Positions 5,864 through 59,415 of a stretch of 64,000 nt of DNA are shown piece after piece; positions within the stretch are counted from its first letter, which is position 1, and each line of letters opens with the position of its first letter. The DNA comes from an uncultured virus (IMG/VR IMGVR_UViG_3300005512_000007). Taxonomy: Duplodnaviria > Heunggongvirae > Uroviricota > Caudoviricetes. The translations under genes were made by a program, and so were the position numbers. Under the pieces are notes generated by a model. That model made no database searches, was not told where the DNA came from, and saw only the letters and a list, made by a program, of their open reading frames with translations. The stretch lies in the IMG/VR virus record IMGVR_UViG_3300005512_000007; one strand, written 5' to 3'.

Positions 5864-6109
5864 ATGGCTGCTAGCAAGAACACCACGAAGATCGCTGAGG
5901 TCCTCATTGAGGACGAGGCGGAGGCCCCGGCCCCCGCTCCTCAGCCCACTGTCGTGTCCCCCACGACCAAGAACGCCAAGATCAAGGGGACGTGGACCAT
6001 GTACTACGGTACTGGTAAGTGGGACTTCGTGGATGGTCATCGTTATGACCTTCCTCTTGACCTTTTCGAATACCTCAAGCGTTCTGGCAATATTTATGAC
6101 ACTTTGTGA
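5864..6109 (+). CDS. hypothetical virion-module protein
   Basis: AAGGAG RBS; TACACT -10 upstream; ends GNIYDTL*. Confidence 0.7.
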   Translation: MAASKNTTKIAEVLIEDEAEAPAPAPQPTVVSPTTKNAKIKGTWTMYYGTGKWDFVDGHRYDLPLDLFEYLKRSGNIYDTL

Positions 6110-6132
6110 AACATGTATGATACGCTGGTCTC

Positions 6133-6663
6133 ATGAAGACCTGTTGTACGTGCAAAGCGGATAAGCCACTGTCAGAGTTCGGTAAGAACAAACGCCAGAA
6201 AGACGGGCATCAACGACGCTGCTTAGAGTGCGCTCGTAAAGCCTCTGCTGAGTACTACCGCAACCACAAAGATCGCGCCACTGCCGCCACCCGTGATTGG
6301 GCTAGGCGCAATCCGGACAGAGTCAACGCCAATAGTAAGCGGTGGCGAGAAGCCAACCCAGAGAAGATGGCGCTCGCTCGCAAGAAGTCAAACGTACGCT
6401 TCTTTTACAACCTTACTCTTGAAGAGCACGAAAAGATGCTACAAAATGGTTGTCAAATTTGCGGGTCCCATGACCGTCTGCACGTAGACCACGATCATTC
6501 TTGTTGCGATGGCCGTTCTAAAGGATGCGGTAACTGTGTTCGTGGTATTCTCTGTTCAACATGCAACACTGGAATAGGTTTCTTGAGAGACGACCCGGAT
6601 CTTCTTAGGAAGGCCATCGCTTATCTTGAGGGCTACACCGGAGCACAGCACGACACTCTCTGA
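6133..6663 (+). mobile_element. Endonuclease VII-family homing endonuclease
   Basis: CQICG...LHVDHDH...VRGILCSTCNTGIG..RDD; N-terminal CxxC zinc module. Confidence 0.85.
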
Positions 6664-6678
6664 TAGAGGAGGGGCCGT

Positions 6679-8403
6679 ATGGCCTTCATTATTCCCAACG
6701 CCGTTGACACATCTAGCGGTGCCAAGTTTGAGAACCTAGATCAGGCTGAGCCGGATTCTCTTGACTTTGAGATCCTCGGTAACACGGGCCGATCTGGTGT
6801 TCTCTCGGGGTGCGAAGTCACGTCGATCTCGTCCAGCACGGCTGTTGCTGTGTCCTCGGGCACCATCGTTATCAACGGTGCGCCGTACAGCATCAGCGCC
6901 GCTGCCTCGTTGGCTATGCCGACGGCCCCCCTCGGTACTCGCTTTGATCTAGTCGTTGCCCGCGTCTCTAGCGGAGTCGCTTCTCTGTTCGTGGTTCAGG
7001 GCGATGATGACGACACGAATCCTGAGTACCCGAAGACTTCCAACACCATCGTTGGCACCTTCAGCCCCACTACCAACGTCAATCTTGATACCGATGTGGT
7101 GCTGGCGGCTATCTACCGGCAGGGGACGCAGGTCATCACCACGTCACGTATTGCCGACAAGCGTACGTTCCAGAGTTCAGCGATCTTCGACCAGAGCACG
7201 TCCGCCCCTGAGTCCGAGGTCAGCATCTCTGCTGTGGCAGATGCGGGGCGGTTGTTCTACCGCAAGGCCGCTCCCAGCGGTACGTCGTCGGGTGTCTACG
7301 TCAAGGGTATCTACGGTGAGTGGTATGAGTTGGCCCGTAACATCGGCCCCCACCTGCCTATCGGTGCCGTCGTAGCGTGGCCCTCCAAGGGATCGCTCCC
7401 ATCAGGATTCATTGAAGCCAACGGACAGAGCCTGCTGACTACTGATTACCCGGCCCTGTTCGCCGCATACGGCTACACCCACGGTGGCTCTGGCTCGTCG
7501 TTCAATGTTCCTAACCTGAACGGGAAGAGCCTCAAAGGCACTACGGATATCAACTTGGTCGGTACCCCAATAGGTAGCGACACTACAACTCTGGATATCG
7601 ATAATCTGCCCGCCCACAGCCACGGGCTGAACAACCATACCCACACGCTTTCACACACCCACTCCATTAACCATAGTCATACTGGTTCAGCATCGTCTGC
7701 GGGTAACCACCAGCATAGACATCAGGATGTTCAGCAGTTCAAATCAGGCAGTAACGCTGGTACTAATAGTGGTTTTGGTGCTAGAAGCATCGAGTACAGC
7801 AATACCGATCCTGCTGGGGCGCACAGCCATACGGTGAGTGTTGGTGCTCCTAGCCCAACTACGACCAGCAGCCAGTCAGCCACTACCACCAGCACTCCTA
7901 GTGCTGATTCTACAACTGAGACCGGTTCTACCCAATCATTTAGTAACGTCCCCGCATCTACGTATGTCCGCTGGATTATCCGATCCGCGCATGGTGTGGA
8001 GACCGACACGGTGGGTGGTACCTCGCTTCTTGATGAGGCTCTTGAAGAGACCGTGACTCTGGAACTGGTGGGATCGGGGTCGCTCCCCGCTAGTCAGGCT
8101 GGGGCGGCGGTGTTCCGTATGCCATATGGGGCGCTCCTTACTGAGGTCCGCGCTGGCCTGAACTCGGGTAGCAACGCCACCTCGGCTATCAGTATCGATA
8201 TCAACGAGTCCGGTAGCAGTATCCTCAGCACTCCGTTGACCATCGATGCTGGAGAGTCCAGTTCTACCTCGGCTGCTGCGGCGGCTGTCATATCAGACCC
8301 GGCCATCGCAGATGACGCACTGATCACAATTGATATCGATTCGGCAGACACAGGAGATAGCGGCCCCCTGACGGTGACCCTGTACTTCACTAGGGATGCC
8401 TGA
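6679..8403 (+). CDS. virion structural protein with internal tail-collar domain and HxH metal-binding fibre segment
   Basis: PIGAVVAW...LPSGFIEANGQ...YPALFAAYGYTHG...FNVPNL; NLPAHSH and further HxH motifs. Confidence 0.75.
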   Translation: MAFIIPNAVDTSSGAKFENLDQAEPDSLDFEILGNTGRSGVLSGCEVTSISSSTAVAVSSGTIVINGAPYSISAAASLAMPTAPLGTRFDLVVARVSSGVASLFVVQGDDDDTNPEYPKTSNTIVGTFSPTTNVNLDTDVVLAAIYRQGTQVITTSRIADKRTFQSSAIFDQSTSAPESEVSISAVADAGRLFYRKAAPSGTSSGVYVKGIYGEWYELARNIGPHLPIGAVVAWPSKGSLPSGFIEANGQSLLTTDYPALFAAYGYTHGGSGSSFNVPNLNGKSLKGTTDINLVGTPIGSDTTTLDIDNLPAHSHGLNNHTHTLSHTHSINHSHTGSASSAGNHQHRHQDVQQFKSGSNAGTNSGFGARSIEYSNTDPAGAHSHTVSVGAPSPTTTSSQSATTTSTPSADSTTETGSTQSFSNVPASTYVRWIIRSAHGVETDTVGGTSLLDEALEETVTLELVGSGSLPASQAGAAVFRMPYGALLTEVRAGLNSGSNATSAISIDINESGSSILSTPLTIDAGESSSTSAAAAAVISDPAIADDALITIDIDSADTGDSGPLTVTLYFTRDA

Positions 8404-9194
8404 TGGCTACTAAGGCTGAGATCGTTACTATTGCCCGCAACTATCTGCGGGACTTCAAGAAGCCGTTCCAGCAGACGTTCGTCCCCATGGGCATTACCTA
8501 TGATCTGGGTAAGCCCAACGTGGAGGCTGACACACTTTGGGTGGAGTATGTTCCGCAGGGTGGATCAACGTCCGCGTCAGTTGCGTACACGCTGGACGAC
8601 CGTAATGGTTTGATACGGCTTGGTAGTGCTTTGCCGAACAACGCCACGCTTATGGTCGACGGTTACTACTACGAATGGCTGCTGCCGTCGGATCTGGATT
8701 TCTACGCCGATATGGCTATCAATCTCAACACGCACAATCTCAAGGTGCCGTTGGCGAACATGGCCCCCGCCGTTGCGGATGTCATAGGTATTCATACCCT
8801 CGTTCAGGCGTTGTGGGGGCTGCTTTCTGAGTACAGCCGCGACATCGATGTAATTACATCCGAGTCCGTCCACATTCAGTCATCGCAGCGTTACCGCATG
8901 GTGTCCAGCCTGCTCGATTACTGGACCAACGAATACAACCGCCGTGCTCAGGCCCTCAACATCGGGCTGGAGCGTCTGGAGGTCGTCAATCTTCGCCGCG
9001 TCAGCCGCACCACCAACCGTTTGGTGCCGCTCTACAAGCCTCGTGAGGTTGGCGATTACGGCCCCATCGAACGTATTTACCCCGAGATCGATGACGGTGT
9101 TATTGATATCGAGGAGTTGCCGGACGATATCCGTGAAGAGGTTTACGTTGACGGTGAGCCGCCGACCGGGTACCTGTCGACTGGGTACTACTGA
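8403..9194 (+). CDS. putative head-tail connector/neck protein
   Basis: Position upstream of the sheath; coupled starts. Confidence 0.45.
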   Translation: MATKAEIVTIARNYLRDFKKPFQQTFVPMGITYDLGKPNVEADTLWVEYVPQGGSTSASVAYTLDDRNGLIRLGSALPNNATLMVDGYYYEWLLPSDLDFYADMAINLNTHNLKVPLANMAPAVADVIGIHTLVQALWGLLSEYSRDIDVITSESVHIQSSQRYRMVSSLLDYWTNEYNRRAQALNIGLERLEVVNLRRVSRTTNRLVPLYKPREVGDYGPIERIYPEIDDGVIDIEELPDDIREEVYVDGEPPTGYLSTGYY

Positions 9195-9718
9195 TGGACC
9201 CCCGCCGAGAACTGAGCCTGATCAACAAGCACGTTCGCAGGCGTAACCGCGAAGCCGGGGAAACCGTTATCTGGTACCAGTTTCAACCACTTCAGGGCGG
9301 GTATAGCGTTTACGACGACGTTTACGACGAGGGCGTCCCCGGGTCGGGTGGGCGTAACTATAAGCCCGCTATCACGATTCCTACCATCTATATAGAAGAG
9401 GTGGAAGACACGTACCGTGCTATTGAGGACGGTCGCCAGCCCACGCAGAATCTGCGTACGACGATCCTTTACAAGGATGCCGTTTCTTGTGGTCTGGAAG
9501 GCGCTGACGAATATAACGCCCACCTCAATGACGTGCTGGAATACGACGGTAGGTATTACAAGGTAAGCGACTATCGGGCTAGGGGCCGTATCCCTACGGA
9601 AGCGATCCTCGTGGTTCAGGCGTACGAGATCTTCTTGGATCAGGAGTTCCTGTTCGACAACGGCCCCCGAAATCCTCGTACTTCAAGCCTCCCTTGGCCT
9701 ACATCGTTTCCTAGTTAG
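9194..9718 (+). CDS. putative head closure/neck protein
   Basis: Position; beta-rich C-terminus (DVLEYDGRYYKV). Confidence 0.45.
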   Translation: MDPRRELSLINKHVRRRNREAGETVIWYQFQPLQGGYSVYDDVYDEGVPGSGGRNYKPAITIPTIYIEEVEDTYRAIEDGRQPTQNLRTTILYKDAVSCGLEGADEYNAHLNDVLEYDGRYYKVSDYRARGRIPTEAILVVQAYEIFLDQEFLFDNGPRNPRTSSLPWPTSFPS

Positions 9719-9796
9719 GTGTAGCATGGGGATGTAGCCGATGCGCGTTGGCTACGTGTTACCGCTTCAAAACGCCTAGAACCACGGAGGAAAGCC

Positions 9797-10198
9797 ATGG
9801 CGGCTTCTCAACCTGCTGCATCCTTTGGTTCTAGTAAGCCGTTTATATCGGGAGAGTTCTCTACCATCTCCGCCTCCGATGAGTTCTCGGACACCTTTAT
9901 CGACGTGCTCATGGACCACATCGACGATCTGATGGTCGAAGCCACCGCAGAGTTCCAAGACGAGGCGTTATCTGATCCTGATTGGAGCGTTTACGCTAGC
10001 GGTTTGGCAGTTGAGGCTGATGCCGGTGACATTCGTTTCTACTATTCGGGAGCGCAGGAAGATGAAGTGCTGGCGCTGGAGTTTGGTACTCCTGATCAGC
10101 CTCCGTCTCCCCTTATTCGCGCAACTGCTGCTAACAAGGCCCGAGACATAGCCAAGGAGTTGGGCACGAGGATTGCTGCGGAGGTGCCGATTGCCTAA
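9797..10198 (+). CDS. putative neck protein (HK97 gp10-like position)
   Basis: LEFGT...PP.PLIR motif; GGAGG RBS. Confidence 0.45.
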   Translation: MAASQPAASFGSSKPFISGEFSTISASDEFSDTFIDVLMDHIDDLMVEATAEFQDEALSDPDWSVYASGLAVEADAGDIRFYYSGAQEDEVLALEFGTPDQPPSPLIRATAANKARDIAKELGTRIAAEVPIA

Positions 10199-10913
10199 TC
10201 CCGGCTTTACACTCGCTGAAGACGCCGCGCTCAAGCAGCGACTTGCTAGTCTGTATGTATCCGATGATAGGGATATGCAGCGCCCCCTTCAGGTGTTCTT
10301 TAGGTACCCCGAAGCGGAGACTGAGAAGCACTACCCCTTTGCGACTATCGAATTATTGGATATCGCATACGCTCGTGATCGCCAAGAGTCTGAGCGCAGG
10401 TACTACTACACCAATGTCGCTGGTGCTTCCGCGCCCCCTCTTTACGTTTCTAATAACTCGTCTAGTCTGACCTACTTTCCTTCTGAAATGAACGCCGCTG
10501 ACATGCAGGAGTATTGGAGCGGGGACGAGACGTACCTTTACACAGACCAATTAGTGCCCGTCAACCTTATGTATCAGGTCAGCACTTATTGCCGGAGCCA
10601 GCGTCATGACAGGGAATTGACCGCTGCCCTGCTCCGTTACGTTTTCCCATTTCGACGGGGTTTCATTGAAATCCCCGAAGACGGCACCATTAGGCGCTGC
10701 GATATACTAGACTGGCGGTCAGCAGATTTGCTAGATCAAGAATCTGGCTATAAAAAGCGTATATTCCGCAAGGTCGTAACAGTACAAATCAATGCAGAGA
10801 TTCCGCAATCAGACTTGGTGTCTGTCAAGCGGGTCCTCTCGGTAAATGGCTCACTAGGTGACAACTACTCGGTTTCTGACGTTTTATCGACTTCTTTCTC
10901 GGAGGATTTCTAA
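10191..10913 (+). CDS. putative tail terminator/completion protein
   Basis: Immediately upstream of the sheath; YPFATIEL, NLMYQVSTY; likely TTG start after GGAGG. Confidence 0.5.
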   Translation: MPNPGFTLAEDAALKQRLASLYVSDDRDMQRPLQVFFRYPEAETEKHYPFATIELLDIAYARDRQESERRYYYTNVAGASAPPLYVSNNSSSLTYFPSEMNAADMQEYWSGDETYLYTDQLVPVNLMYQVSTYCRSQRHDRELTAALLRYVFPFRRGFIEIPEDGTIRRCDILDWRSADLLDQESGYKKRIFRKVVTVQINAEIPQSDLVSVKRVLSVNGSLGDNYSVSDVLSTSFSEDF

Positions 10914-12479: not shown

Positions 12480-12500
12480 TAATCCAAGGAGTAATATCCC

Positions 12501-13130
12501 ATGGCACGAGCAGCAGCAACCGACCCGCTTAGGAACTTTAAGTTTCAGGTCATTATCCAGCCTGAGTCGGGTTCCCGCCTCAATGACCTCATCGGCGCAA
12601 GCCTCCCCAAGTTGGGGTTCTCGGTGGTCTCTGGTCTGACTGTCCAGAATGAGATGATTGCCTACCGCGAGGGCGGCATGAACACCCATCCGCATAAGAT
12701 GGTTGGACAGTCTGACTACGGCCCCGTCACCCTTACCAAGGGTGTCTTTGCCGATCAGGACGCCCTCTATAAGTGGCAGCAATTCATGCACTCGTGGGCG
12801 CAGGGTGGCCTTGAGGACGAGGGTTCACAGTCGGGCAGCAATGACTACCGATGCGACGTTGTCGTGACCGTCCACGATCATCCGGTGTCGGCGGGTTCCT
12901 ACGCCCAGCCGGGGCGTTCCGAGAGTGATCCCACCCCCGCTGGTGCGATTAAGTTAGGCTACAAGTTGTTCAACTGCTGGCCCGCTTCGTTCTCGATGGG
13001 AGACCTCAACGCTGGTGACTCTTCGATCCTGATTCAGCAGATCGTGCTGAACCACGAGGGGTTCGCTGTGCAGTGGGCCTCCTCGGCGGACGGCACGATT
13101 GACCTGTCCTCGGTCAGCAACATTTCGTAA
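12501..13130 (+). CDS. tail tube protein (T4 gp19-like)
   Basis: DPLRNFKF, GFS.VSGL, YREGG, VTLTKG, NCWP. Confidence 0.92.
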   Translation: MARAAATDPLRNFKFQVIIQPESGSRLNDLIGASLPKLGFSVVSGLTVQNEMIAYREGGMNTHPHKMVGQSDYGPVTLTKGVFADQDALYKWQQFMHSWAQGGLEDEGSQSGSNDYRCDVVVTVHDHPVSAGSYAQPGRSESDPTPAGAIKLGYKLFNCWPASFSMGDLNAGDSSILIQQIVLNHEGFAVQWASSADGTIDLSSVSNIS

Positions 13131-13160
13131 CATATTTATCCACACAATTAGGAGTACAAC

Positions 13161-14094: not shown

Positions 14095-14105
14095 CGGAGG
14101 CGTGC

Positions 14106-32009: not shown

Positions 32010-32451
32010 CGACATCGCCCCCACCACCCACAAGCACATCGCTTGCTGGTTTGAGGACCTCATCATCACTCGCATGGAGGAGCCTGTGAAGCGCCGGTTC
32101 TTCCAGCGTGAGAAAGAGGTAACAGAAGAAGAGTGGGTCAGGGCAGAGGTGCGGAAGTGGAAGATCAACGAGATGCCACTCAAGTCTCTCCACCACATGG
32201 TGAACCACCTCAACCTCGGGGTGGAGGTGTACACCTACATGGAGGATGAACTCGCAGATGCCGCCACTCACTGGCTGGCACGCAAGGGCATCTCCGTCAC
32301 GGTCTACGCCTACAACGACCTCAACGATCTGCGGGACGACTTCAAGTACAACCGCGACGTACACACACTGTTCACGCCGTACGAGGATGACGCCGCCATG
32401 CTGGGTATGCGTGCTACTGTCACCAGACCCGATGGGACGTTTGGTATCTGA
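31999..32451 (+). CDS. hypothetical protein (possible degenerate HAD fold)
   Basis: Coupled ORF; phage-like codon usage. Confidence 0.6.
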   Translation: MEGNDIAPTTHKHIACWFEDLIITRMEEPVKRRFFQREKEVTEEEWVRAEVRKWKINEMPLKSLHHMVNHLNLGVEVYTYMEDELADAATHWLARKGISVTVYAYNDLNDLRDDFKYNRDVHTLFTPYEDDAAMLGMRATVTRPDGTFGI

Positions 32452-33701
32452 TGGCATCTATTGAGCACCTCGTAATCAGCAAGATCATTGAGGAGCAGTC
32501 GCTACACGAGGCTGTTCGCTCCGGCATCAAGCCGGTCTACTTCGCCAACGAGTGGGAGAAGGTGTACCAGTGGGTGCTGGATTACAACAACCAGCACGGG
32601 GCCGTCCCCTCCGAGCGAGCCTTCCACGTCGCCTACGGTGACATTGACATCGAGGACACGGGTGCTGAGACGTTCAGCGGCCTCTTCGACGAACTGCTCA
32701 ATGCGTACCGCTCTCGCACCGTCATTGCGGCGGTGTCGGATGCTATGGGGCCACTCGACAAGGACGACGTGTCCGAGGCCATGGCGATCCTGTCCAAGGG
32801 TCTCCAGTCAGCCAGCGCTGATACGGCACGGCTCCGAGACTTCAACATCATCGAGAACTGGGAAGCCCGCTTTGAGCGCTACAAGGAAATGCGTGATACC
32901 CCTAACGCTTTGCGTGGTATCCCCACCGGCTTCTCTGGGTTGGATCGCATCACTCACGGACTTCGCCCCCAGCAGTTCGTCGTCATGGTGGGCGAGCCGA
33001 AGCGAGGCAAGTCGCTGTTTGAGTTGATCATGGCTAACGCCTGCCACCGACACGGCCTGCGCCCCATGTTCATCTCCTTTGAGATGTCCGTAGCCGAGCA
33101 GGAGTCACGCTACGACGCACTCAACGCCAAGGTTCCCTATGACCGCATCCTCAGCGGCCAGTTGTCTGAGGCTGAGATGGAGCGCATCCGCAAGTCCATG
33201 GTTCTCAGCAAGAACATGCAACCGTTCATCATGTCTGAGGACAGCAGTAGCCTGACCACGGTCAGCGCCATTGCCGCCAAGATTCAGGAGTACCAGCCCG
33301 ACGCTGTGTACATCGACGGCATGTACCTCATGGACGACGAGCACGGGGAGCCAAAGGGCAGTCCGCAGGCTCTGACCAACATCACCCGGGGTACGAAGCG
33401 CCTCGCTCAGCGGTTTGATATTCCTATCGTCGGAACGTCGCAGGTGCTATCTTGGAAACTCAACAACAAACGCACCCGAGCGATCACGGCGGACTCGATT
33501 GGCTACACATCATCTTTTGTGCAGGACTCTGACTTGGTACTGGGCGTTGAACGCAATCCAGACCTCGACGACCAAGCCATTATCCGGGTGGTAGAGGCTC
33601 GTACAGCGGGCCACGCAGAAGTCCATGTCAAGTGGGACTGGCAGACCATGGAATTCTCCGAAATTGATGAAATAGACGAAATTGATCCATCTTTCGATTA
33701 A
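32451..33701 (+). CDS. dnaB: DnaB-like replicative helicase
   Basis: GIPTGF..LD, GEPKRGKS, SFEMS, IDG.YLM, QDSD. Confidence 0.92.
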   Translation: MASIEHLVISKIIEEQSLHEAVRSGIKPVYFANEWEKVYQWVLDYNNQHGAVPSERAFHVAYGDIDIEDTGAETFSGLFDELLNAYRSRTVIAAVSDAMGPLDKDDVSEAMAILSKGLQSASADTARLRDFNIIENWEARFERYKEMRDTPNALRGIPTGFSGLDRITHGLRPQQFVVMVGEPKRGKSLFELIMANACHRHGLRPMFISFEMSVAEQESRYDALNAKVPYDRILSGQLSEAEMERIRKSMVLSKNMQPFIMSEDSSSLTTVSAIAAKIQEYQPDAVYIDGMYLMDDEHGEPKGSPQALTNITRGTKRLAQRFDIPIVGTSQVLSWKLNNKRTRAITADSIGYTSSFVQDSDLVLGVERNPDLDDQAIIRVVEARTAGHAEVHVKWDWQTMEFSEIDEIDEIDPSFD

Positions 33702-33711
33702 GGTTAATCCC

Positions 33712-34176
33712 ATGACAACATGTGCTTTTGATGGATGCGAGAGAACCTCTACTAGGAAGGCGCTGTGCGATGGTCACTACCGGCAGAAGCACACGAGAGG
33801 AGAAGAACTGCGCCCCCTTCTGCTGGATGAGTCTTTTGAGGTAAGATTGAAACGTCTTATTACGGTCGACAGCGCCACAGGATGCTGGAACACTAAAGCA
33901 CCTAGGGCACACATGTCGTGGAAGGGACGAGTAGACATTGTCTACAGACACGTTTACCGAGAGATGGTGGGTCCGCTGATCCGAGGTACTAGGTATGACC
34001 GTGGCGAATCTGTCGATCACTTGTGCCTCAACGAGCATTGCGTCAACCCCGACCACCTACAGAAGGTGACGGCGAGAGAGAATACCAAACGTATGCACGC
34101 CCATACAGCCCTTCGGGCACGCATCTCAAGACTGGAATCCCAGATTCGGGAACTTGGACAGGAGCCAGTAAGTTGA
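33712..34176 (+). mobile_element. HNH homing endonuclease
   Basis: CAFDGC..LCDGHY; GCW; VDHLCLNEHCVNPDHLQKVT..EN. Confidence 0.85.
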
Positions 34177-34193
34177 CCCCTCATTCGACTGAG

Positions 34194-34400
34194 ATGGACA
34201 TCGTGGAACGCTTGCGCGACGTTATAGAAATGTCGTGGGATGGAGAAGAAGTGACTGATCCACTGTGCGAAGAAGCCGCCGCCGAGATCGAACGGTTGCG
34301 TGCCGTCGTGACCCGGCAAGGGATGAAACCCATGGTCGCATACAGCGAAGAAGCAGGAATGTACGACAACCAACTCTCACAGGAGGCCCGCCGTGGATGA
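34194..34400 (+). CDS. small hypothetical protein (DIVERLR/EAA.EIERLR type)
   Basis: MDIVERLR...EAAAEIERLR. Confidence 0.6.
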   Translation: MDIVERLRDVIEMSWDGEEVTDPLCEEAAAEIERLRAVVTRQGMKPMVAYSEEAGMYDNQLSQEARRG

Positions 34401-34656
34401 CATCGTGGATCGGTTGGAGTGGTGCGCCATCAGCACCCCCGAGATTCATCTGCTCAGGGAGGCCGCTCAGTACATCCGCAAATTGAGGGAGGAACTGGCA
34501 GAGGCAATGGACGACCGCATCTTTGTGGTAGACGAGAACGATAACGAGATCGCAGTCATTGAGGGCAATAACGCTGAACTCGTAAGGCGGGCGGCTCTGA
34601 CTGAGTTCATCACTAACAGTGTGTTGGAGAAAGCACGTGAGCAACAGGAGCAGTGA
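34393..34656 (+). CDS. small hypothetical protein, paralog of 34194
   Basis: MDDIVDRLE...EAAQYIRKLR; AGGAGG RBS. Confidence 0.6.
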   Translation: MDDIVDRLEWCAISTPEIHLLREAAQYIRKLREELAEAMDDRIFVVDENDNEIAVIEGNNAELVRRAALTEFITNSVLEKAREQQEQ

Positions 34657-44673: not shown

Positions 44674-44956
44674 GATAGTACAAACCGACGCATACGGCAT
44701 CGCCCCGCTGGGCGCTAGCCGCCCTCGTAAGGTCATCAACTCTGATGCCCGTGAACGCAGGTACCGCAAGGCTATGGCCCTCAAAGAGGACTTAGGTCTG
44801 ACTAAGGAGGAGCGGTACAGCCTCGCACAGATGATCCCCGGTGTTGACAAGGACTACGGTGGGTCGTGGAAGGAACTGGATACTGATCAGTTGCATGATC
44901 TGATCACCATGATGGAGGGGTACATATGGATCACGCACATGATGATGCAGAGGTAG
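44666..44956 (+). CDS. hypothetical protein
   Basis: GGAG RBS; coupled. Confidence 0.6.
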   Translation: MAEIVQTDAYGIAPLGASRPRKVINSDARERRYRKAMALKEDLGLTKEERYSLAQMIPGVDKDYGGSWKELDTDQLHDLITMMEGYIWITHMMMQR

Positions 44957-45141
44957 TGTGCCCCGACTCGGGGTCTGCCGGTGTGCTTCCTAAATACGTT
45001 ATTCTTAGGTGCTGTAGGGATTGGCCCATACAGATAGAAGCGGTTTACGACCGTGGAGGTACGTGCGGACTGTGCGGAGAATCACCGGAATTGATAATGA
45101 AGGAGTACCAGAGTGGGAAATCGTCAGAAAGCCAAGATTAA
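44956..45141 (+). CDS. small Cys-rich protein
   Basis: CC...CGLCG; start uncertain. Confidence 0.45.
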   Translation: MCPDSGSAGVLPKYVILRCCRDWPIQIEAVYDRGGTCGLCGESPELIMKEYQSGKSSESQD

Positions 45142-45145
45142 TTAG
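45113..45145 (+). pseudogene. orphaned 5' stub of the resolvase gene (MGNRQKAKIN*)
   Basis: AAGGAG RBS + GTG; homologous to MGNKMKARG at 45647. Confidence 0.65.
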
Positions 45146-45199
45146 ACGTATATTGCGATTTATCGCTCTCAAACTTCATAGGTTTGATAATATGTCCAT

Positions 45200-45640
45200 A
45201 TGACATCTATACATCCCCTTATGGGTACCAAGAGTAACGCTCAGACAACTGACCGTACTTCTCACTTTATTGGCATGATCGGAGAGGCCGACCTAATTAG
45301 GTGGGCGGCTCATCATGGGTATCATGTGTACAAAGGTTTTGATGGGCACACACCCGCTGACTACATCCTTGATATGGATGGGGAATTGTTCCGGCTTGAG
45401 GCAAAGCGCATTGAGTCAGTACAGCACCTGCACAACAACTACTACTACGTAACGGTTACCCACCTACGCACGGATTCGTTTGACTACATCTTCGTGTCCA
45501 CAGAACAGGGCTGTTACCTGATACCATCTAGTGAGTGCCCGAAGTCCACACTATCTATCAAGGTAGAAGGCGACGAGTACGAACGGAACATAACTAGGTC
45601 CGGTAAATACGAGAAGTACAAAGTGGAAATGCCGAGGTGA
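45200..45640 (+). mobile_element. PD-(D/E)XK homing-endonuclease-like gene
   Basis: G.IGE...GY.V...AD.I...RLEAK...FDYIF..CYLIP. Confidence 0.7.
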
Positions 45641-45646: not shown

Positions 45647-46015
45647 ATGGGAAACAAGATGAAAGCACGGGGAACGGCGTTTGAGACACTCGTTGTCAAG
45701 TATCTTCGTCCCCGTGGGTTCAAGAAGGCTTATCGTCCTGCTACTTCAGGGTCTTATGACAGTGGTGATATCAACGGTATCCGTAGCGCTAATCGTCAGG
45801 CGATTATTCAGTGTAAGAACCAGCGGAAGTTTGAACTCTCTGGATGGCTCGATGACACAGTATCGCAGGCACAGCAGGAAGCAGTCGGGGGGAACGCTCT
45901 CCCAGTTCTGGTAGTAAAGCGCCCCGGAGTGGGTGAAAAGAACCTCGGAGATACCTATGCGATTCTTCGCTTAGAGGACCTTTCTGCCCTCCTCAAGGAG
46001 GCTGGGTACAACTAA
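45647..46015 (+). CDS. Holliday junction resolvase (Hjc-like)
   Basis: K.RGT.FE..VV.YL...D.GDI.G...IQCKN. Confidence 0.8.
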   Translation: MGNKMKARGTAFETLVVKYLRPRGFKKAYRPATSGSYDSGDINGIRSANRQAIIQCKNQRKFELSGWLDDTVSQAQQEAVGGNALPVLVVKRPGVGEKNLGDTYAILRLEDLSALLKEAGYN

Positions 46016-51788: not shown

Positions 51789-52268
51789 ATGGCACGTCTC
51801 TTGATCTGCAATACCTGTAAGACGGTCGATAAGTTGCCTAACTACGCAACTGAGAATGACCCCGAGGCTAAGCATGACCATCACCTGCGTGATGCCATCG
51901 ACCTGCACATGCGGAAGTTCGGTGGCCCCCCTGATCGTCATAAGGCCAACCTCTTCAGCATCGACGACGCTGAGTTGGAACTCATTGACGAGACACGCCT
52001 TCAGCAGGCCGTCCACGACGGTCGCCTTGAGGCGTTCCTGAAGGAAGAGCGTGAGCAGTACAAGACTGACGCTCTGGGGTGCTACAACCTCCACAACAGG
52101 CCCACTGTGGGCGCTGGGTACGGATCGGGGTGCCCTGACTACCGTGACAAGAGCCGTGCTATCGGGCGTACTGCCGGTCTGCCCCCCGAGGAGTGGAACT
52201 ACCTCTGCGACTTCTGCCCGTACCACTCGTACGTGGAGCACCAACTCAACAAGAAGCGCAAGTTCTGA
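51789..52268 (+). CDS. Cys/His-rich (zinc-binding) protein
   Basis: CNTC, C..H, CPDY, CDFC; AAGGAG RBS. Confidence 0.7.
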   Translation: MARLLICNTCKTVDKLPNYATENDPEAKHDHHLRDAIDLHMRKFGGPPDRHKANLFSIDDAELELIDETRLQQAVHDGRLEAFLKEEREQYKTDALGCYNLHNRPTVGAGYGSGCPDYRDKSRAIGRTAGLPPEEWNYLCDFCPYHSYVEHQLNKKRKF

Positions 52269-52468
52269 TGAACGCCACCACGCAGAAGGCGCTGAACACC
52301 GCCCTGCTGGTGGGGTGTATCTACGAAATCATTGCTCTCGTGTCCCACGCAGTCCCCACGATCACTCGCCTTCTACGCATACTGGGTTCTAAGCCCTTTG
52401 GTAAGGCGCTGGTATGGATGTGGTGTGGCTACATCTCGTGGCACTTCTTGGAGCCTTTGGACTCGTGA
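52268..52468 (+). CDS. small membrane protein
   Basis: YEI.AL...PTIT...W.GY.SWHF. Confidence 0.6.
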   Translation: MNATTQKALNTALLVGCIYEIIALVSHAVPTITRLLRILGSKPFGKALVWMWCGYISWHFLEPLDS

Positions 52469-52941
52469 TGCTTACACAGGAACGTCTGAAAGAGTTGCTG
52501 GAATACGATCCCGAAACGGGCGTGTTCGTGTGGTTGCAGACGACTAGTAACCGAGTCAAGGTGGGCTCAGTTGCTGGGTGTAGGCGTAGGGATGGCTACC
52601 TATTGATCAGGCTGGACGGCAAGTTGTATCTAGGACACCGTCTTGCATGGCTGTACGTCCACGGTGAGTGGCCCGCCAACGTGATTGACCACATTGACCA
52701 GAACAAGTCCAACAACGCCATCAGCAACCTACGGGACACCAGCATGGCGGTCAACGGCCTCAACAAGGACAAGCCTCGCCGCCATAACACGACGGGCTTC
52801 ATGGGAGTGTCTAAGCGTAAGGACAGGTTCTTAGCGCAGGTCAGCAGAAAGCGAGGGCTTACCAAACTATTTGATACGCCCGAAGAAGCGCACGAGTGGT
52901 ATCTGGCTACTAAAGCCACCCTACTTGAGGAGTTACTCTAA
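52468..52941 (+). mobile_element. HNH homing endonuclease with AP2-like C-terminus
   Basis: LTQERLKELLEYDPETGVF, HRLAWLY..G.WP..IDHID.NK.NN.I.NLR, NTTG..GV, F.T.EEA. Confidence 0.88.
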
Positions 52942-53417
52942 TCATACTTTTCAACTTCGACGTACTGGCTCGCCCCAATGCTGAACTGGGGGCGAGGGTC
53001 CCCGATCCAGAAGGCGTGTACCTCTGGCGTGCCCTGCACGAAGCCTCAGTGGGTCGCTTGGGCGTGCTCTACAGCGGTGATCCAGACATCGTGATGTTTG
53101 AGAACTGGATGAAGATCAACCAGATCAAGGCCATCATGTACGACACCACTGGAACAACGGAACCTAAAGTGTGTGCCGAAAAGGCAGCAGCAATCTTGAC
53201 TGCTTCCGGCGGCAGAAGTATGTACTTCGATACCAACCCTGAGGTGATATCGCATACATACAGTATGGGTACGCCTTCCCTACTGGTATGTCAGCCGTAT
53301 GTGGTGCGCCCTGAGTGGTCTACTGAAAAGCCCATGAAAGGCTGGGATGTCCTGACCGAGGAGATCGACCGGCAAGCCATTGCTCGTGCCGAGAAGAAGT
53401 GGGGGGACTTCACGTGA
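52941..53417 (+). CDS. HAD-like protein with no canonical start at its apparent N-terminus
   Basis: Open frame IILFNFDVLARP... begins at ATC 52941 after GAGGAG; first GTG only at 53016. Confidence 0.5.
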   Translation: MILFNFDVLARPNAELGARVPDPEGVYLWRALHEASVGRLGVLYSGDPDIVMFENWMKINQIKAIMYDTTGTTEPKVCAEKAAAILTASGGRSMYFDTNPEVISHTYSMGTPSLLVCQPYVVRPEWSTEKPMKGWDVLTEEIDRQAIARAEKKWGDFT

Positions 53418-54847: not shown

Positions 54848-54860
54848 CATATGAAATGAT

Positions 54861-55181
54861 ATGGCAAACAAGATCGTAAAGAACAACCGCTCGCAGGTTC
54901 TGGCTGAGGCCGACGAACTCATCAACGGGGACCGGAACAACCAGTACGGCGAACCCACTGATGACTTCCGTAAGACTGCCGACCTGTGGTCCGTCTACCT
55001 CACCTCGGTGGCGAAGGCCCCCGTCACACTGCTTCCGCATGACGTGGCAGTGATGATGATGATGCTCAAGGTCAGTCGTATCGCTTGGTCTCCGAACAAG
55101 CGTGACAACTGGACTGACCTCGCTGGGTATGCCGCATGTGGGTGGGACTGCGTCGTGGCCGAGTCCCTCAATGACGACTAA
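54861..55181 (+). CDS. DUF6378-like helical nucleotide pyrophosphatase-type protein
   Basis: L.EA..LI.GDR..YG.P...F...A.LWS.YL...DVA.MM..LK..R...DNW.D.AGYA. Confidence 0.75.
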   Translation: MANKIVKNNRSQVLAEADELINGDRNNQYGEPTDDFRKTADLWSVYLTSVAKAPVTLLPHDVAVMMMMLKVSRIAWSPNKRDNWTDLAGYAACGWDCVVAESLNDD

Positions 55182-55539
55182 GCGCTGGGCTGACGACGCT
55201 CTCTGCGCTGGCTACCACAGCGAGATGTGGTATCCGCCCCTCTTCAAGGAGGAGCGGACTGCCCCCGAGGCTCAGTATTACGATCTAGGCAAGTTGATCT
55301 GCGAGCATTGCCCTATCCAGCAAGAGTGCGCCGAGCGTGGAGCCGACGAGGAGTACGGCATGTGGGGCGGTCTTACGCCTAAAGAGCGGAGGCTCAATAG
55401 ACCTCGGCCCACGAAGACGTACCTGCCGTTGGATAAGATCAAGGTGCTTCCAAAGGCCGATCCAGACGTGCCTCTATTCGTCCCCGAACTGAGGCTGGAG
55501 GTCCGTAAGCATTTGAAGCGACGGCCACGGAAGAAGTAG
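55171..55539 (+). CDS. whiB: WhiB-family Fe-S transcription factor
   Basis: 4 Cys (C, CxxC, C) and GMWGG.T..ERR. Confidence 0.85.
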   Translation: MTTKRWADDALCAGYHSEMWYPPLFKEERTAPEAQYYDLGKLICEHCPIQQECAERGADEEYGMWGGLTPKERRLNRPRPTKTYLPLDKIKVLPKADPDVPLFVPELRLEVRKHLKRRPRKK

Positions 55540-55572
55540 TATCAAAAGGTCCACCCGTACAAGAGGAGCACA

Positions 55573-55866
55573 ATGAGCGAAGAACTATTCGACCACTACG
55601 ACAAGGTCTCTGACCAGTACGCACTGCCGATGCTGTTACATCCCGAGAAGGATGTGCGCTGGAGGTCGGAAGCCGAATGTCGTAATCACCCCGAGGTCGA
55701 CTTCTTCTACGGTCCCACTGCCCCTGCTATCGCCATCTGCCAGACCTGCTCAGTCAGTGAGGAGTGTCTGAACTTCGCCGTCGACAACGAGATCTACTAC
55801 GGGGTCTACGGTGGGCTGTCCGGTAAGGACCGCAGGTGGTGGCCCACCCAGCAGGAGCCATCATGA
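55573..55866 (+). CDS. whiB: WhiB-family Fe-S transcription factor
   Basis: W...A.C, CQTC..C, GVYGGLS..DRR. Confidence 0.85.
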   Translation: MSEELFDHYDKVSDQYALPMLLHPEKDVRWRSEAECRNHPEVDFFYGPTAPAIAICQTCSVSEECLNFAVDNEIYYGVYGGLSGKDRRWWPTQQEPS

Positions 55867-56936
55867 TCATCGGTGTCGCCAGTGCGGACTACCTCCGTGC
55901 TGATCGTTCCCCCGACGGGGTAGAGAAGTGGGGCGGTGCTGGCTGGGCACGACTGGGTCAGTACATCCCCTACTTCCGTGAGGCTGGTCACGAGGTCTAC
56001 GTGGGCACGCTGTGGCAGAGGGACGGCAAGTTGGCCGTGGAGCAGGCAGACGGCTCGATGGAGTTCCCCGACGTGATCCTGCTACAGCGCATCATGCACG
56101 ACAAGGTCGATCAGTCGATCAAGTTCGGGCAGGAGCACGGACAGATCGTTATCAACGACCTCGATGACTGGTACTGGGGGCTGGACCCGAGCAACGAGGC
56201 GTTCAAGGCATCGCACCCCAAGTACAACCAGATCGAGAACACGCTCTTCTACGCCAAGAACATGCAGGCATCGGACCTGATCACCACCAGCACCCCGTAT
56301 CTGGCGCAGAGGCTGAAGGAGAAGTTCAAGAGGGACCCCATTATCCTGCCGAACTGTATTGACGTGGAGCGGTTCTCTCCCGTCGATCAGGACGTAGACG
56401 TACCCACAGTGGGCTGGGTCGGCTCCACGTCGCACCGCTCAGGAGACATCGAGACGTTGCGTGGAGTCTTTGAGAGGTTCCTGCGTGACGGTCAGATCAA
56501 GATGTACCACGGGGGCGACGCTGAGACCTCGCCATCGTTCGCCAGCGTCATCGGACTAGATGATGAGTTGGTGGAGCGGTCCCCGAGAAAGACCACCGAC
56601 GAGTACCCGCAGTTGTTGACGATGCAGATCGGCATGGTGCCACTGCGTGATACCCCCTTCAATATGGCTAAGAGCGCTATCAAAGGCTTAGAGTATGCGG
56701 CTTCGGGGATTCCGTTCATCGCTGCCGCGCTGCCGAGTTACCGGGAGATCCACGATTTGTGGGGCGGCGGTTTCATGTTGGCTAAGCGACCTATGGACTG
56801 GGTAAAGGCCACTAAGAAACTGCTCGATAAGTCACTTCGTATCGAACTTCAGCAGTCTCTGTTGGAGAGTGCTAAACAGCACGACATCCGCCACGGAGCG
56901 AAGGCATGGCTGGACCTACTGGAAGGGTTGGCGTAA
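55863..56936 (+). CDS. GT-B glycosyltransferase
   Basis: DLDD, LPN.ID, VGWVGS..H..D, PL...FN..KS.IK.LEYAA.GIP. Confidence 0.85.
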   Translation: MIIGVASADYLRADRSPDGVEKWGGAGWARLGQYIPYFREAGHEVYVGTLWQRDGKLAVEQADGSMEFPDVILLQRIMHDKVDQSIKFGQEHGQIVINDLDDWYWGLDPSNEAFKASHPKYNQIENTLFYAKNMQASDLITTSTPYLAQRLKEKFKRDPIILPNCIDVERFSPVDQDVDVPTVGWVGSTSHRSGDIETLRGVFERFLRDGQIKMYHGGDAETSPSFASVIGLDDELVERSPRKTTDEYPQLLTMQIGMVPLRDTPFNMAKSAIKGLEYAASGIPFIAAALPSYREIHDLWGGGFMLAKRPMDWVKATKKLLDKSLRIELQQSLLESAKQHDIRHGAKAWLDLLEGLA

Positions 56937-56998
56937 TGGAACTTCTGCTGTGGCTGGCGCTCACCATCGTCATCATGATCCTGCTCAAGACACGATGA
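56936..56998 (+). CDS. 20-aa single-TM peptide
   Basis: MELLLWLALTIVIMILLKTR*; coupled on both sides (TAATG, ATGA). Confidence 0.5.
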   Translation: MELLLWLALTIVIMILLKTR

Positions 56999-57732
56999 GA
57001 GTGCTACTCGTAGGCGACACCCACGGTGATCGCCAGTTCGTATCCAACGTGAACCGGCTCGCCAAGACTCAGCGAGCGCAGTACGTCATCCAGTTGGGGG
57101 ACTTCGGCTACTCCTTCCCTGAGGCTGTGCTGACCTCGATCAGGACGTGGCTCGATGCTGACGAGCGCCGTAAGTGGCTGTGGCTCGACGGGAATCACGA
57201 CCAGCATGACTACATCCGCTCTGAGATATGCAAGGGCAAGCACCCCAAGAAGCCGGTGGCCCACTTCCACGACCGCATGTACTACTGCCCCCGTGGGAGC
57301 ACGTTACGTATCGGTAAGAAGAAGGTGCTGTTCCTTGGGGGTGCTGTCAGCGTGGACAAGGCTCGTCGCACGCAGGGCGAGAACTGGTGGCCTCAGGAGT
57401 CGATCAACACTGCCGACGTGTACCGAGCAATAGACAACGGCAAGGGAGCCGACGTGCTCCTGAGCCACGACTGTCCTGACACACTCGATATCAGGCGCTG
57501 GCTTCGCTCCAACGGATACAAGAACGACCGTGACTCACAGCAGAACCGTATGGCTATCAGAGCAGTCGTTGATGAACTCGATATCCCCGAGGTGTACCAC
57601 GGGCACTACCACCACCGGTACACCGCTCACTACGGCAACACGCTGGTCGAGGGTCTGGGTGCTAACTACGCACGGGGCGAGCACTCGCCCAAGGCGACGC
57701 TCGATCACAACTGCCTGCTACTGGACTGGTAA
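56995..57732 (+). CDS. metallophosphoesterase
   Basis: GDTHG, GDFG, GNHD, SHDCP, HGHYH. Confidence 0.9.
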   Translation: MRVLLVGDTHGDRQFVSNVNRLAKTQRAQYVIQLGDFGYSFPEAVLTSIRTWLDADERRKWLWLDGNHDQHDYIRSEICKGKHPKKPVAHFHDRMYYCPRGSTLRIGKKKVLFLGGAVSVDKARRTQGENWWPQESINTADVYRAIDNGKGADVLLSHDCPDTLDIRRWLRSNGYKNDRDSQQNRMAIRAVVDELDIPEVYHGHYHHRYTAHYGNTLVEGLGANYARGEHSPKATLDHNCLLLDW

Positions 57733-57739
57733 CGCAGAA

Positions 57740-57763
57740 GAGCAGGGGCCGAAGCCCCTGCTC
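57740..57763. terminator. terminator hairpin at the strand convergence point
   Basis: GAGCAGGGGC-CGAA-GCCCCTGCTC (UUCG loop on the minus strand). Confidence 0.8.
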
Positions 57764-57823
57764 AACTACTGCTACTTCCGTTGGGTCTGTCCAGACACCA
57801 CTCCAGACAGTGGGAGTAACCCC

Positions 57824-58315
57824 TCAGGAGGTGGCGACCACGGGCCAGATGTACTCCAAGTATTTGAGAGCACTATCCAGTTTCTTTTGATCTTTCAGCC
57901 ACTTCTCCAGATGGCCTAGCGAGGGGTTGCACGTTCCGCATAACAGCCCTCGCACTTTACCTGTGTCGTGGCAATGGTCGATGTGGAAGGAGAGCGAGTC
58001 TACTTCCTCGGTGCATATGGCGCATATGCCATTTGCTTTCTTCACCAACTCCTCGTACTCGTCCCTGCTCAAACCGTATTTGCGAAGACGCTCGGCAAGC
58101 CGTCGTTTAGCAACCCACTCTGGGTCTTCTCGCTTCACTGCCATGTACTTACGTTGTTTTTCCTTACCGTCCACTTGGTAGCGAATGGCCTGCTTATCGG
58201 AGTCGTAAGTTTTCCTGCTGTACGCATTACGGCAGGCTTTACATTGCCCTGCTCTACGCATTTCTTGCGATGGCTTGTCTTGGTTGCATTGGTTACATCT
58301 CATACGGCCAAACAT
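57824..58315 (-). mobile_element. Endonuclease VII-family homing endonuclease
   Basis: KYGLS..EY, CAIC, HIDHCHDTGKVRGLLCGTCN. Confidence 0.88.
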
Positions 58316-58328
58316 ACACTAATGGTAT

Positions 58329-58797
58329 TTACTTATGGCCCACAAATGGCCCCCAAACGTAATCCAAACCGAGTGGGGTGTCGGGCCAGATCGGCCCGTA
58401 GAACTCGGGGTCCTTGCGGATGAGGTTGGACCGGTGCGAGATCATGATGTCGTTGAGGAACGACGGAGGAGTGGGGTCGTCGCCGTAATGGGTGTGCATC
58501 TCCAACACGCCACGGAAGCGCTCCTGTAGCGAGTCCTGATACCCACGGCGCTTCCACTCAGCGCAACAACGGAACCCGTAGTGGGCGAGGGATGCGATGC
58601 GCCCCTCCCACATGCGAGTGGCTGGGTGGTTGACCCACCCCTTGTGCTCCTTGGGGTTGCCGTCGTTGTCTACGCCACGGAGGACGTTGAGAATCTGCCA
58701 CGCTTCTACACGTTGCTTGCCGAGGTCAGAGACGCCGGTAATCCAGTGACAGGAAACCGGCGTACAGGTCAGTACCTTCTGGTGCGAAGGTCTGCAT
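58329..58797 (-). CDS. pyrimidine-dimer DNA glycosylase-like (MSMEG_6728 family), interrupted by a 7-nt insert (pseudogene or recoded)
   Basis: MQTF...LDYRRL / GKQRVEA.QIL, GWVNHPA.RMW, EW.RRGY.D, SHRSNL.RKDP.FY; stop TGA at 58728-58726. Confidence 0.8.
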
Positions 58798-58811
58798 ATT
58801 TGACCACCTCC

Positions 58812-59300
58812 TTATGGTATGTCATTGGGGTCGCCCCCTAGTTGTCTGATGTGATCTTCCAATAGTTCTATGCGCCTTGTCAAGTATCTTGCGAACCTGA
58901 GCCGACGCATGTTCTCATACTGCGATACCGCTTCTAAGTGCTCAGGATTACAGCACTTGGTATTTCGGCATAGGTGATCTACTTGGTCACCTTCTTGCAG
59001 TGGGGCTACATAGTGTTCGTATGCCCAGCGATGAGCCATGTATTTCCTACCCCCGTGCCACAGTTGACCGTAGCCCCTACCTTGGTCCGCTCCTTTACCT
59101 GAGCCTCTACCGTTGGCGGTAAATACCCAGCACCCATCGTCCTGTTTGACAATGGAGCGTAGGAACCTCTCCTCAGCGGTCTCGTGAGTCCTGATGGGAG
59201 TTAGGTCGTGACCTCTCGACTGTTGCGCCCAGTGACTGTTACACAGCCCCTTAGCGCAGTGAGGCTTTTCACAGCCGGGGAATGAGCATTGCTTGTTCAT
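58812..59300 (-). mobile_element. HNH homing endonuclease
   Basis: CSFPGC..GLCNSH; GCW; GYG; AHR; VDHLCRN..CCNPEHLEAV...EN. Confidence 0.88.
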
Positions 59301-59361
59301 GTCGGTACCTCCTCTACGAGGCTACCACACGATGGGTAGGTTTGTAGAGGAATGATACCTG

Positions 59362-59415
59362 TTAGTGGTGGAATCCAAGGTCGAGGTCTGTGCCCTCGGG
59401 GACGAATGTCTGCAT
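59362..59415 (-). pseudogene. orphaned 5' stub of the glycosylase (MQTFVPEGTDLDLGFHH*)
   Basis: AGGAG RBS; 12 of the first 15 residues match the ORF starting at 58797. Confidence 0.85.

Follow-up and report, generated by a model that had tools for sequence, protein, structure and literature searches.

The usual view is that a homing endonuclease spares its host gene only by residing in an intron, in an intein or at an intergenic site. I-Ssp6803I is intron-encoded, and the Seg and Mob families of the T-even phages are free-standing homing endonucleases. To our knowledge the T-even free-standing cases lie between intact genes, with no duplicated, displaced terminus. Here we describe six endonuclease genes in a 64-kb stretch of DNA (64,000 nucleotides (nt), called the window) that makes up most of the genome of an uncultured tailed phage (IMG/VR record IMGVR_UViG_3300005512_000007). 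They are interpreted as cassettes, inserted in the first or last few codons of a gene, in which a free-standing homing endonuclease gene is accompanied by a substitute for the gene terminus, a reading to which we give a probability of roughly 80%. The copy of the terminus joined to the gene body is called the patch, and the copy on the far side of the nuclease gene is called the stub. The sites are numbered 1 (3' end of a tail-region gene), 2 (3' end of the DnaB gene), 3 (start of a resolvase gene), 4 and 5 (3' and 5' ends of a DenV-like gene) and 6 (the third HNH gene).

Gene hybrids of this kind have been described in fungal mitochondria, where they are associated with mobile ORFs (mORFs) in atp6 of Allomyces macrogynus and in atp6, atp9, cox2 and nad3 of Glomus sp. 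(PMC3630166). In the part of that report available here, the mORF hybrids and the window cassettes have several properties in common. An endonuclease open reading frame (ORF) lies near the 3' end of a gene, with a foreign, diverged copy of the C-terminus joined in phase; the differences are mostly synonymous. The gene's own C-terminus is found farther downstream, where it still reads almost as in close relatives and is in some cases in phase with the nuclease ORF. This anatomy was found at sites 1, 2 and 4, which are 3' ends, and at site 5, which is a 5' end. The window cassettes differ from the mORF hybrids in that they reside in a phage and encode HNH, EndoVII or PD-(D/E)XK nucleases, whereas the mORFs are mitochondrial and encode LAGLIDADG or GIY-YIG nucleases. 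The duplicated pieces are 14-51 nt long in the window compared with roughly 50-280 nt in the hybrids, and use at a 5' end, with a ribosome-binding site and start codon supplied by the cassette, is not described for the fungal cases in the same part of the report. By this comparison the window cassettes appear to work like the mORF hybrids without belonging to that group.

Among phage elements, the best reading is that the window cassettes are related to the MobA/gene 60 element of T4. There, too, an HNH cassette lies in a phage ORF without an intron or intein, near-identical relatives lack the insert, and the insert encodes a replacement, HomR, that is 67-81% identical to what it replaces, the patches described here being 65-80% identical (bioRxiv 10.1101/2022.08.31.505936, as far as the accessible text goes). 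According to the same text, MobA splits its gene mid-way into two proteins, deletes the parental segment, leaves no stub and carries a 50-nt translational bypass. Unlike the gene split by MobA, the host genes in the window stay single ORFs, and their parental ends are kept as stubs.

Free-standing endonucleases of phages home without introns and co-convert flanking markers (PMC10448857). Like those of the T-even phages, as covered in the available sections of that survey, the window nucleases lie beside genes, are patchily distributed among relatives, are flanked by co-converted donor sequence and are intron-free. Displaced gene termini are not described in those sections or in the available part of a comparison of Xanthomonas phages (PMC2248197), and beyond MobA no description of the stub-and-patch design in phages was found in the full-text literature, a body of text that leaves subscription-only papers outside its coverage. 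The finding described below is well supported by natural empty alleles, and with it a phenomenon known from organelles reaches phages, 5' ends and three nuclease folds.

Six nuclease genes without introns

Six intact endonuclease ORFs were identified at gene boundaries with Pfam and PHROG, and all six retain their family motifs. They comprise two EndoVII genes, three HNH_3 genes and one I-Ssp6803I-like PD-(D/E)XK gene. Pfam thus bears out the composition and the placement at host gene ends given in an initial annotation of the window, and the coordinates and peptides of that annotation were all correct on re-check. The Rfam scan of the window returned 0 families, hence no recognisable group I or II intron, and every host ORF meets a stop codon ahead of its nuclease gene. 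Together these two results rule out an intron or intein as the explanation. Free-standing status fits all six genes, each of which encodes a recognised homing-endonuclease fold outside an intron or intein (Pfam, PHROG, Rfam). The two EndoVII genes are paralogous (37% identity across 101 residues), as are HNH genes 2 and 5 (35% identity across 162 residues). G+C content at third codon positions (GC3) is 0.53-0.68 in the nuclease genes compared with 0.62-0.76 in five large host genes.

Relatives of the window were taken from uncultured-virus loci, designated L### for loci and G### for records; a relative's locus without the nuclease gene is called an empty allele. Many such relatives are present in IMG/VR, and nuclease-free alleles exist among them for all six sites. 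Relatives that bear a nuclease at the same locus were found at site 1 only (L027, L028 and L034). A near-identity DNA search of cultured phages with the window gave no match, and the best DnaB matches among cultured phages are about 32% identical. Single-protein scans of IMG/VR with nucleases 2, 3 and 5 returned distant matches or none, with no close homologues at other sites. A metagenome scan with nuclease 5 returned distant homologues in unrelated contexts and one contig identical to the window (L140). A brief look at the EndoVII region of Gordonia phage Clown revealed nothing informative.

Stubs match the empty alleles of relatives

At sites 1, 2, 4 and 5 the stub matches the empty allele at 14/15, 18/21, 35/36 and 51/51 nt, respectively, and aligns collinearly with it. 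The patch matches at 12/15, 16/21, 11/18 and 33/51 nt. Differences from the empty allele, mostly synonymous and AT-richer, form a burst of 7-17 mismatches per 30 nt that covers 30-90 nt and is confined to the patch side of the nuclease gene. At sites 1, 4 and 5 the stub side has 0 mismatches in its first 60 nt, and at site 2 the right flank from 34399, beyond the stub and a small gene termed gpX', has 1 mismatch per 30 nt. The one-sided bursts of 30-90 nt, which are variable among the nuclease-bearing genomes of site 1, have the form of co-converted donor tracts.

Cassettes at 3' ends consist of codons, a stop, a spacer of 10-23 nt and the nuclease gene. In those at 5' ends the nuclease gene comes first, and a Shine-Dalgarno sequence then leads into the start codon and further codons. 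The stub provides the nuclease with its stop codon in both EndoVII genes, or with its start in nuclease 6 and in relatives of nuclease 3. As initially claimed, the design was found at both 5' and 3' ends and in three nuclease families, which Pfam and the fold search confirm.

The initial annotation expected empty relatives to carry the stub and not the patch, and the allele comparison agrees at sites 1, 2, 4 and 5. It took the stub to be the displaced native end. This holds for sites 1, 4 and 5, but the site 2 stub is cassette-borne, and the two copies at site 3 are equally far from the allele of the nearest relative. The duplicated terminus that it reported at five of six sites is real at all five, and the sixth nuclease has a three-codon version as well. 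Its description of the working copies as AT-richer is correct for sites 1, 2, 4 and 5 and fails at site 3, as the G+C content of the patch lies below that of the native counterpart at 4/5 sites. The patch was also said to be recoded. It does differ from the native sequence at sites 1, 2, 4 and 5, but a foreign donor allele suffices to explain this because the divergence at site 5 is natural-like and the low GC3 of the patch resembles that of the nuclease genes.

Direct repeats flank every nuclease gene, so that the nuclease-bearing state might in principle be ancestral and the empty relatives might have arisen by recombination between the two terminus copies. Nuclease 1, which looks old, would suit this explanation. 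If the repeats had recombined, however, whatever portion of the patch tract extends past the repeat would still be present in the empty allele. This portion is absent from 16 close DnaB relatives and from L033, L030, L050 and L051, and the empty alleles span lineages up to 26% diverged. An ancestral nuclease-bearing state is therefore very improbable, and formation of the empty alleles by deletion was rejected, since none carries the patch part beyond the repeat.

Terminus matches were also assessed within the window alone, using 86 non-nuclease genes as a positional control. None of these genes (0/86) reaches 5/7 matches. The score is 6/7 at sites 2 and 5, but 4/7 at sites 1 and 3, which is equalled by 6-7 of the 86 control genes. 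A blind comparison of 8-mers, all against all, was noisier: site 5 alone (7/8) lay above its null, which reaches 4-6/8 with 53 genes. The peptide matches of sites 1, 3 and 4 thus fall within chance when the window is taken by itself. These three sites could be attributed to chance peptide similarity, and an assembly that joined strain variants could produce repeated termini, the window being probably a metagenome assembly. Such an origin has a probability close to nil. The reality of the duplications is settled because the stubs match and align collinearly with the empty alleles of relatives, which come from independent contigs with identity up to 51/51. Furthermore, the site 1 structure is repeated in three contigs of other samples, and a complete nuclease ORF lies inside every repeat pair.

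An EndoVII gene at the 3' end of a tail-region gene

Host gene 1 (5864-6109, plus strand) encodes a protein of 81 amino acids that belongs to no family and ends in YDTL. Its last ~45 nt (6064-6109) constitute the foreign patch, and mismatches to the empty allele L033 cluster at 6064-6106. EndoVII homing endonuclease 1 follows (6133-6663, plus strand; Pfam PF02945, E value 4.6e-16; PHROG endonuclease VII). Its reading frame runs on into the native stub of host gene 1, which makes up the last 14 nt (6650-6663, DTL and stop), and ends at the native stop.

Ten related loci were found, six of which span the junction. The nuclease is present in L027, L028 and L034 and absent from L029, L030 and L033, a 3/3 split. 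In the empty alleles the last four codons and stop of the 81-amino-acid gene are followed directly by the ribosome-binding site of the tail-fibre gene. The stub matches each of these three alleles at 14/15 nt; the patch (6095-6109) matches the native sequence at 12/15 nt, and both altered codons are synonymous. The three nuclease-bearing relatives have differing upstream patch variants, but they have a common last-codon change and a common stub. A variable patch with a shared stub is the trace that repeated gene conversion with variable tracts would leave. Nuclease 1 of the window is 87% identical to that of L027, and the flanks are 98% and 92% identical. Since the nuclease is diverged beyond its flanks, its association with site 1 is not recent.

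A mini-ORF of seven codons, MYDTLVS (6113-6136, plus strand), bridges the stop codon of host gene 1 and the start of the nuclease gene, which its own stop overlaps (ATGA). It repeats the host terminus in yet another, third spelling (NMYDTL versus NIYDTL) and is also present in L027, L028 and L034. This mini-ORF may be a relic of an earlier round of insertion or a coupling leader.

An HNH gene at the 3' end of the DnaB gene

The DnaB-like helicase gene (32451-33701, plus strand; Pfam DnaB_C) ends in a foreign patch of ~50 nt (33653-33701), and its mismatches to L001 cluster at 33653-33700. HNH_3 homing endonuclease 2 (33712-34176, plus strand; Pfam HNH_3 / zf-His_Me_endon) is followed by the DnaB stub, VDPSFD and stop (34172-34192, plus strand), which is the native-type last 6 codons with the stop. 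Next is gpX' (34194-34400, plus strand), a 68-amino-acid diverged copy of the small gene that comes after DnaB. It starts with the native-type MDIVERL, and neither Pfam nor PHROG assigns it to a family. Where the insertion meets the backbone on the right, GTG-GAT stands in place of the ATG of gpX (34393-34656, plus strand), the small gene that belongs to this backbone.

Nuclease 2 is absent from all 26 DnaB loci, including 16 close relatives whose DnaB is 81-99% identical. Relative to L001 the window has a 701-bp insertion (33698-34398), with 97.7% identity upstream and 96.4% downstream. Compared with L002 the stub matches at 18/21 nt and the patch at 16/21 nt. All 5 differing codons among the last 7 of the patch are synonymous and AT-richer. 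The stub has 1 difference to the allele of L014-L016 and 3 to that of L001. Because the stub is nearest to the allele of another sub-lineage and the diverged gpX' lies behind it, both came with the cassette. Besides the stub, the insertion at this site brought a whole foreign neighbour gene (gpX', 34194-34400).

The final 21 nt of DnaB are unusually conserved: in the 16 relatives they show 0-2 differences from L001, while the gene bodies differ by up to 26.5%. The DnaB patch lies 4-5 nt from every natural allele in this segment. Conservation at the DNA level spans the end of DnaB and the start of the next gene (34172-34210 of the window; around 4231-4269 in L001-L022). It is plausible that this conserved DnaB/gpX junction reflects the nuclease target or a constraint from translational coupling.

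A PD-(D/E)XK gene at the start of a resolvase gene

Homing endonuclease 3 (45200-45640, plus strand) is an I-Ssp6803I-like protein of the PD-(D/E)XK type. It matches PF11645 (PDDEXK_5) with 26.7 bits against a cut-off of 26.1, a thin margin. Residues D54, E67 and K69 (D...E-x-K) are invariant in an alignment of 8 sequences. The structural model is of modest confidence (mean predicted local distance difference test score 56), and the top Foldseek match is I-Ssp6803I (PDB 2OST; E value 6e-5, template modelling score 0.51), with which the sequence identity is 22%. A sequence search of PDB found no meaningful match, and a search of cultured phages found weak partial matches only. Nuclease 3 resembles I-Ssp6803I in its best structural match, in PF11645 and in the D...ExK motif, but is free-standing at a resolvase start.

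The stub at this site (45113-45145, plus strand) consists of a Shine-Dalgarno sequence (AAGGAG), a GTG and 7 codons (GNRQKAK), followed by 2 codons and a stop. The resolvase-like gene (45647-46015, plus strand; PHROG 244) has its divergent patch in the first ~30 nt (45647-45677). There are 10 mismatches to L037 in 45652-45677 and 4 in the following 90 nt. Nuclease 3 is absent from 11/11 close loci, and in L037-L039 the stop of the upstream gene overlaps the resolvase start. The stub matches the family alleles of L040 and L045 at 6/7 residues, whereas 0/4,949 random 170-nt pieces of the window reach 5/7. The duplication at site 3 is real but older, and either the stub or the patch may be the native copy.

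A profile scan identified four further homologues of nuclease 3, all directly upstream of a resolvase homologue (L148:1977-2773, L149:1977-2746, L150:1952-2724 and L151:2001-2745). In 3/4 of these loci a copy of the locus's own resolvase start was found at or just ahead of the nuclease start. The pair in L149 reads TTPEKAKGS / TTPEKARGS, and 6/11 codons are synonymously different. In L148 and L149 the nuclease ORF opens with the resolvase's own first codons. Compared with the window, the nucleases of the four loci are 46-65% identical and the resolvases 29-36% identical. The nuclease 3 family appears to follow the start of the resolvase gene across distant phages.

Two further observations concern this site. 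The region upstream of the resolvase (44954-45200 in the window; around 2100-2500 in L040-L047) is variable, and in relatives it contains nothing, a small zinc-ribbon-like ORF or two extra ORFs. The conserved N-terminal LMGTKSNA of nuclease 3 (45218-45241) resembles the resolvase start MGNKMKA at 5/8 residues, which is within the chance range of the test; it might be a still older captured stub.

A minimal version at the third HNH gene

HNH_3 homing endonuclease 6 (52468-52941, plus strand; Pfam HNH_3, E value 3.7e-14) is inserted where the stop of one gene overlaps the start of the next (GTGA), and the native GTG of the downstream gene (52465) now opens into the nuclease ORF. It is absent from G003, G004 and G005, which are the 3/3 records with the region among five searched. 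The downstream gene (52941-53417, plus strand) is open from an ATC at 52941, eight bases behind GAGGAG (52927-52932). Its native GTG was lost to the nuclease ORF, and the downstream gene probably restarts at this ATC, which would yield MILFNFD..., the same as the native N-terminus. The first 25 residues of the downstream gene are conserved with relatives. Site 6 appears to be a three-codon patch and as such a minimal version of the design.

Nuclease genes at both ends of the DenV-like gene

The DenV-like (Pyr_excise) gene (58329-58797, minus strand) has a patch at each end, 58797-58704 at the 5' end and 58370-58329 at the 3' end. The intact homologue in L050 belongs to Pfam PF03013 (E value 5.5e-17). 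EndoVII homing endonuclease 4 (57824-58315, minus strand; Pfam PF02945, E value 7.5e-21) lies at the 3' end. HNH_3 homing endonuclease 5 (58812-59300, minus strand; Pfam HNH_3, E value 1.3e-12) lies at the 5' end, and beyond it is the 5' stub (59362-59415, minus strand), which comprises native codons 1-17 and then TAA. L050 and L051 are 89-95% identical to the window in this region and lack both nuclease genes, which are also absent from the more distant L052, L053 and L056.

The last 36 nt of nuclease 4 (57859-57824, LEYIWPVVATS and stop, 11 codons) are the native DenV-like stub in frame, with 35/36 nt identical to L050, while the gene body carries a different tail (11/18 nt). Among the phage homologues listed for nuclease 4, 24/25 stop aligning at residue 153-154 of 163, consistent with a captured native tail. 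At site 5 the stub (59415-59365) is identical to L050 and L051 at 51/51 nt. The patch retains 33/51 nt of the native sequence, and of its 17 codons 7 have synonymous and 5 non-synonymous changes. Natural alleles of diverged lineages retain 33-36/51 nt.

A 7-nt insertion lies inside the 5' patch, at a point where the DenV-like motif is uninterrupted in 80/80 homologues. It reads CTC-TGA-C-CTC-GGC (58731-58719, minus strand), so that identical Leu codons flank the stop, and a +7 ribosomal hop would restore precisely the RRLGKQ of the family. An 8-bp GC-rich hairpin is predicted just upstream (fold z-score -1.1; one independent sequence). Two explanations are conceivable: the gene may be dead and the insertion a scar of the junction, or the insertion may act as a miniature bypass of the kind seen in T4 gene 60; a parallel to the MobA bypass is speculative. 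RF2-type +1 frameshifting is a known mechanism. At CTC-TGA-C it was considered unlikely, there being no upstream Shine-Dalgarno-like element and poor re-pairing. The L140 metagenome contig (5,486 nt) is 100% identical to window positions 61800-56315 and comes from the same population or source, so it provides no independent check of the frameshift. A survey of 80 DenV loci revealed no second duplicated gene start, the motif used being present in 37 of them only.

A second divergent tract was observed at 59425-59575 (minus strand), where there are 42 mismatches or gaps to L050 in 150 nt (11, 15, 6, 6 and 4 in bins of 30). This tract, which opens 10 nt ahead of the DenV-like start, lies on the stub side, where the sequence is otherwise native.

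Homing cassettes or passive scars

An alternative is that the duplications are passive scars. Sloppy, partly illegitimate recombination may have carried the nuclease genes along with adjoining donor sequence, leaving the patches as hitch-hiking flanks with no role in immunity, beside nucleases that are perhaps no longer homing. The 5' patch of the DenV-like gene does not exceed natural alleles from diverged lineages in its distance to the native sequence, and the gene itself is interrupted by a 7-nt junction scar. In addition, an entire diverged neighbour gene was carried along at site 2, and nuclease 1 is more diverged than its flanks. All six nuclease ORFs are nevertheless intact with their family motifs kept, and the design recurs at six sites and, for the PD-(D/E)XK family, in 3/4 other phages. 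The DnaB patch has 4-5 changes in 21 nt, compared with 0-2 from L001 in 16 natural alleles whose gene bodies differ by up to 26.5%. In addition, a patch keeps the ORF whole even if it is a scar. Purely passive origin therefore seems unlikely, though clearly less so than deletion from an ancestral nuclease-bearing state.

Several results weigh against homing cassettes with replacement termini. Mobility as a unit is directly supported solely at sites 1 and 3. At site 1 the divergence of nuclease 1 argues for old residence and not for recent spread. At site 3 the stub matches the nearest relative's allele at 16/24 nt and the patch at 15/24 nt. The site 2 stub is cassette-borne and not the displaced end of this backbone; moreover, its 36-nt region is nearly identical to the conserved DnaB/gpX junction, and therefore this junction alone cannot be the target of nuclease 2. 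At site 5 the 7-nt insertion (58728-58722) breaks the DenV-like frame after codon 23, and therefore the cassette left no intact gene. The initial claim that genes are repaired without splicing agrees with the 0 Rfam matches and with the lack of a detectable intron, but does not extend to this gene, which is frameshifted by 7 nt. Statistics from the window alone are weak for sites 1, 3 and 4, three of the five peptide matches being within chance. Finally, the activity and the targets of the six nucleases are inferred.

Proposed mechanism

In this reading a cassette consists of a nuclease gene and a foreign copy of the terminus that it displaces, to which the 5'-end type adds a ribosome-binding site and a start codon. 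The gene body joins the patch as one open frame, making an intron or intein unnecessary, and the native-type terminus stays beyond the nuclease gene as a dead stub. Spread would occur by repair of a double-strand break, for which the gene body would provide homology on one side and the stub, together with the DNA that follows it, on the other. Such a cassette may have originated from a nuclease gene just outside a gene in a diverged donor, copied into a recipient that was cut inside the gene end. The side without homology would then be closed by an illegitimate or microhomology join. Three junction details would fit this origin: a TGGAG microhomology at the point where nuclease 4 runs into its stub, the additional gene brought in at site 2 and the 7-nt scar left at site 5. 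The target site would be lost through the divergence of the two copies, which would also make deletion by repeat recombination harder.

A wider proposal is that terminus replacement is a general third homing route beside introns and inteins, by which nucleases of several folds enter the conserved codons at either end of phage genes, and that the respelling is selected for immunity to the element's own nuclease and for protection from repeat deletion. We regard this as a tentative possibility, with the odds somewhat against it. In its boldest form, which is speculative, the 7-nt gap with its CUC-flanked UGA in the patched DenV-like gene would be a cassette-borne ribosomal hop like that of gene 60.

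Genome and host of the phage

Pfam identified sheath, tube, baseplate and lysis genes in the window, together with genes for DnaB, primase, an SNF2 helicase, PolA, RecA and two WhiB-family proteins. The two WhiB-family genes suggest an actinobacterial host. The G+C content of the window is 55.7%, and no transfer RNA gene was found in it.

Implications

Six cases in one phage offer an alternative to introns, inteins and intergenic sites, in that the element supplies a spare gene end. The natural empty alleles available for every site make targets and immunity directly testable. Stub ends mark likely points of cleavage or insertion, a possible lead to new site-specific nucleases. The short stubs and mini-ORFs found next to nuclease genes would be relics and not genes. 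Where a gene terminus adjoins a nuclease gene, its sequence may be foreign, and phylogenies or recombination maps that include it can be misled. The PD-(D/E)XK nuclease is always found at a resolvase start even though the resolvases are about 29-36% identical, which suggests that these cassettes move between distant phages.

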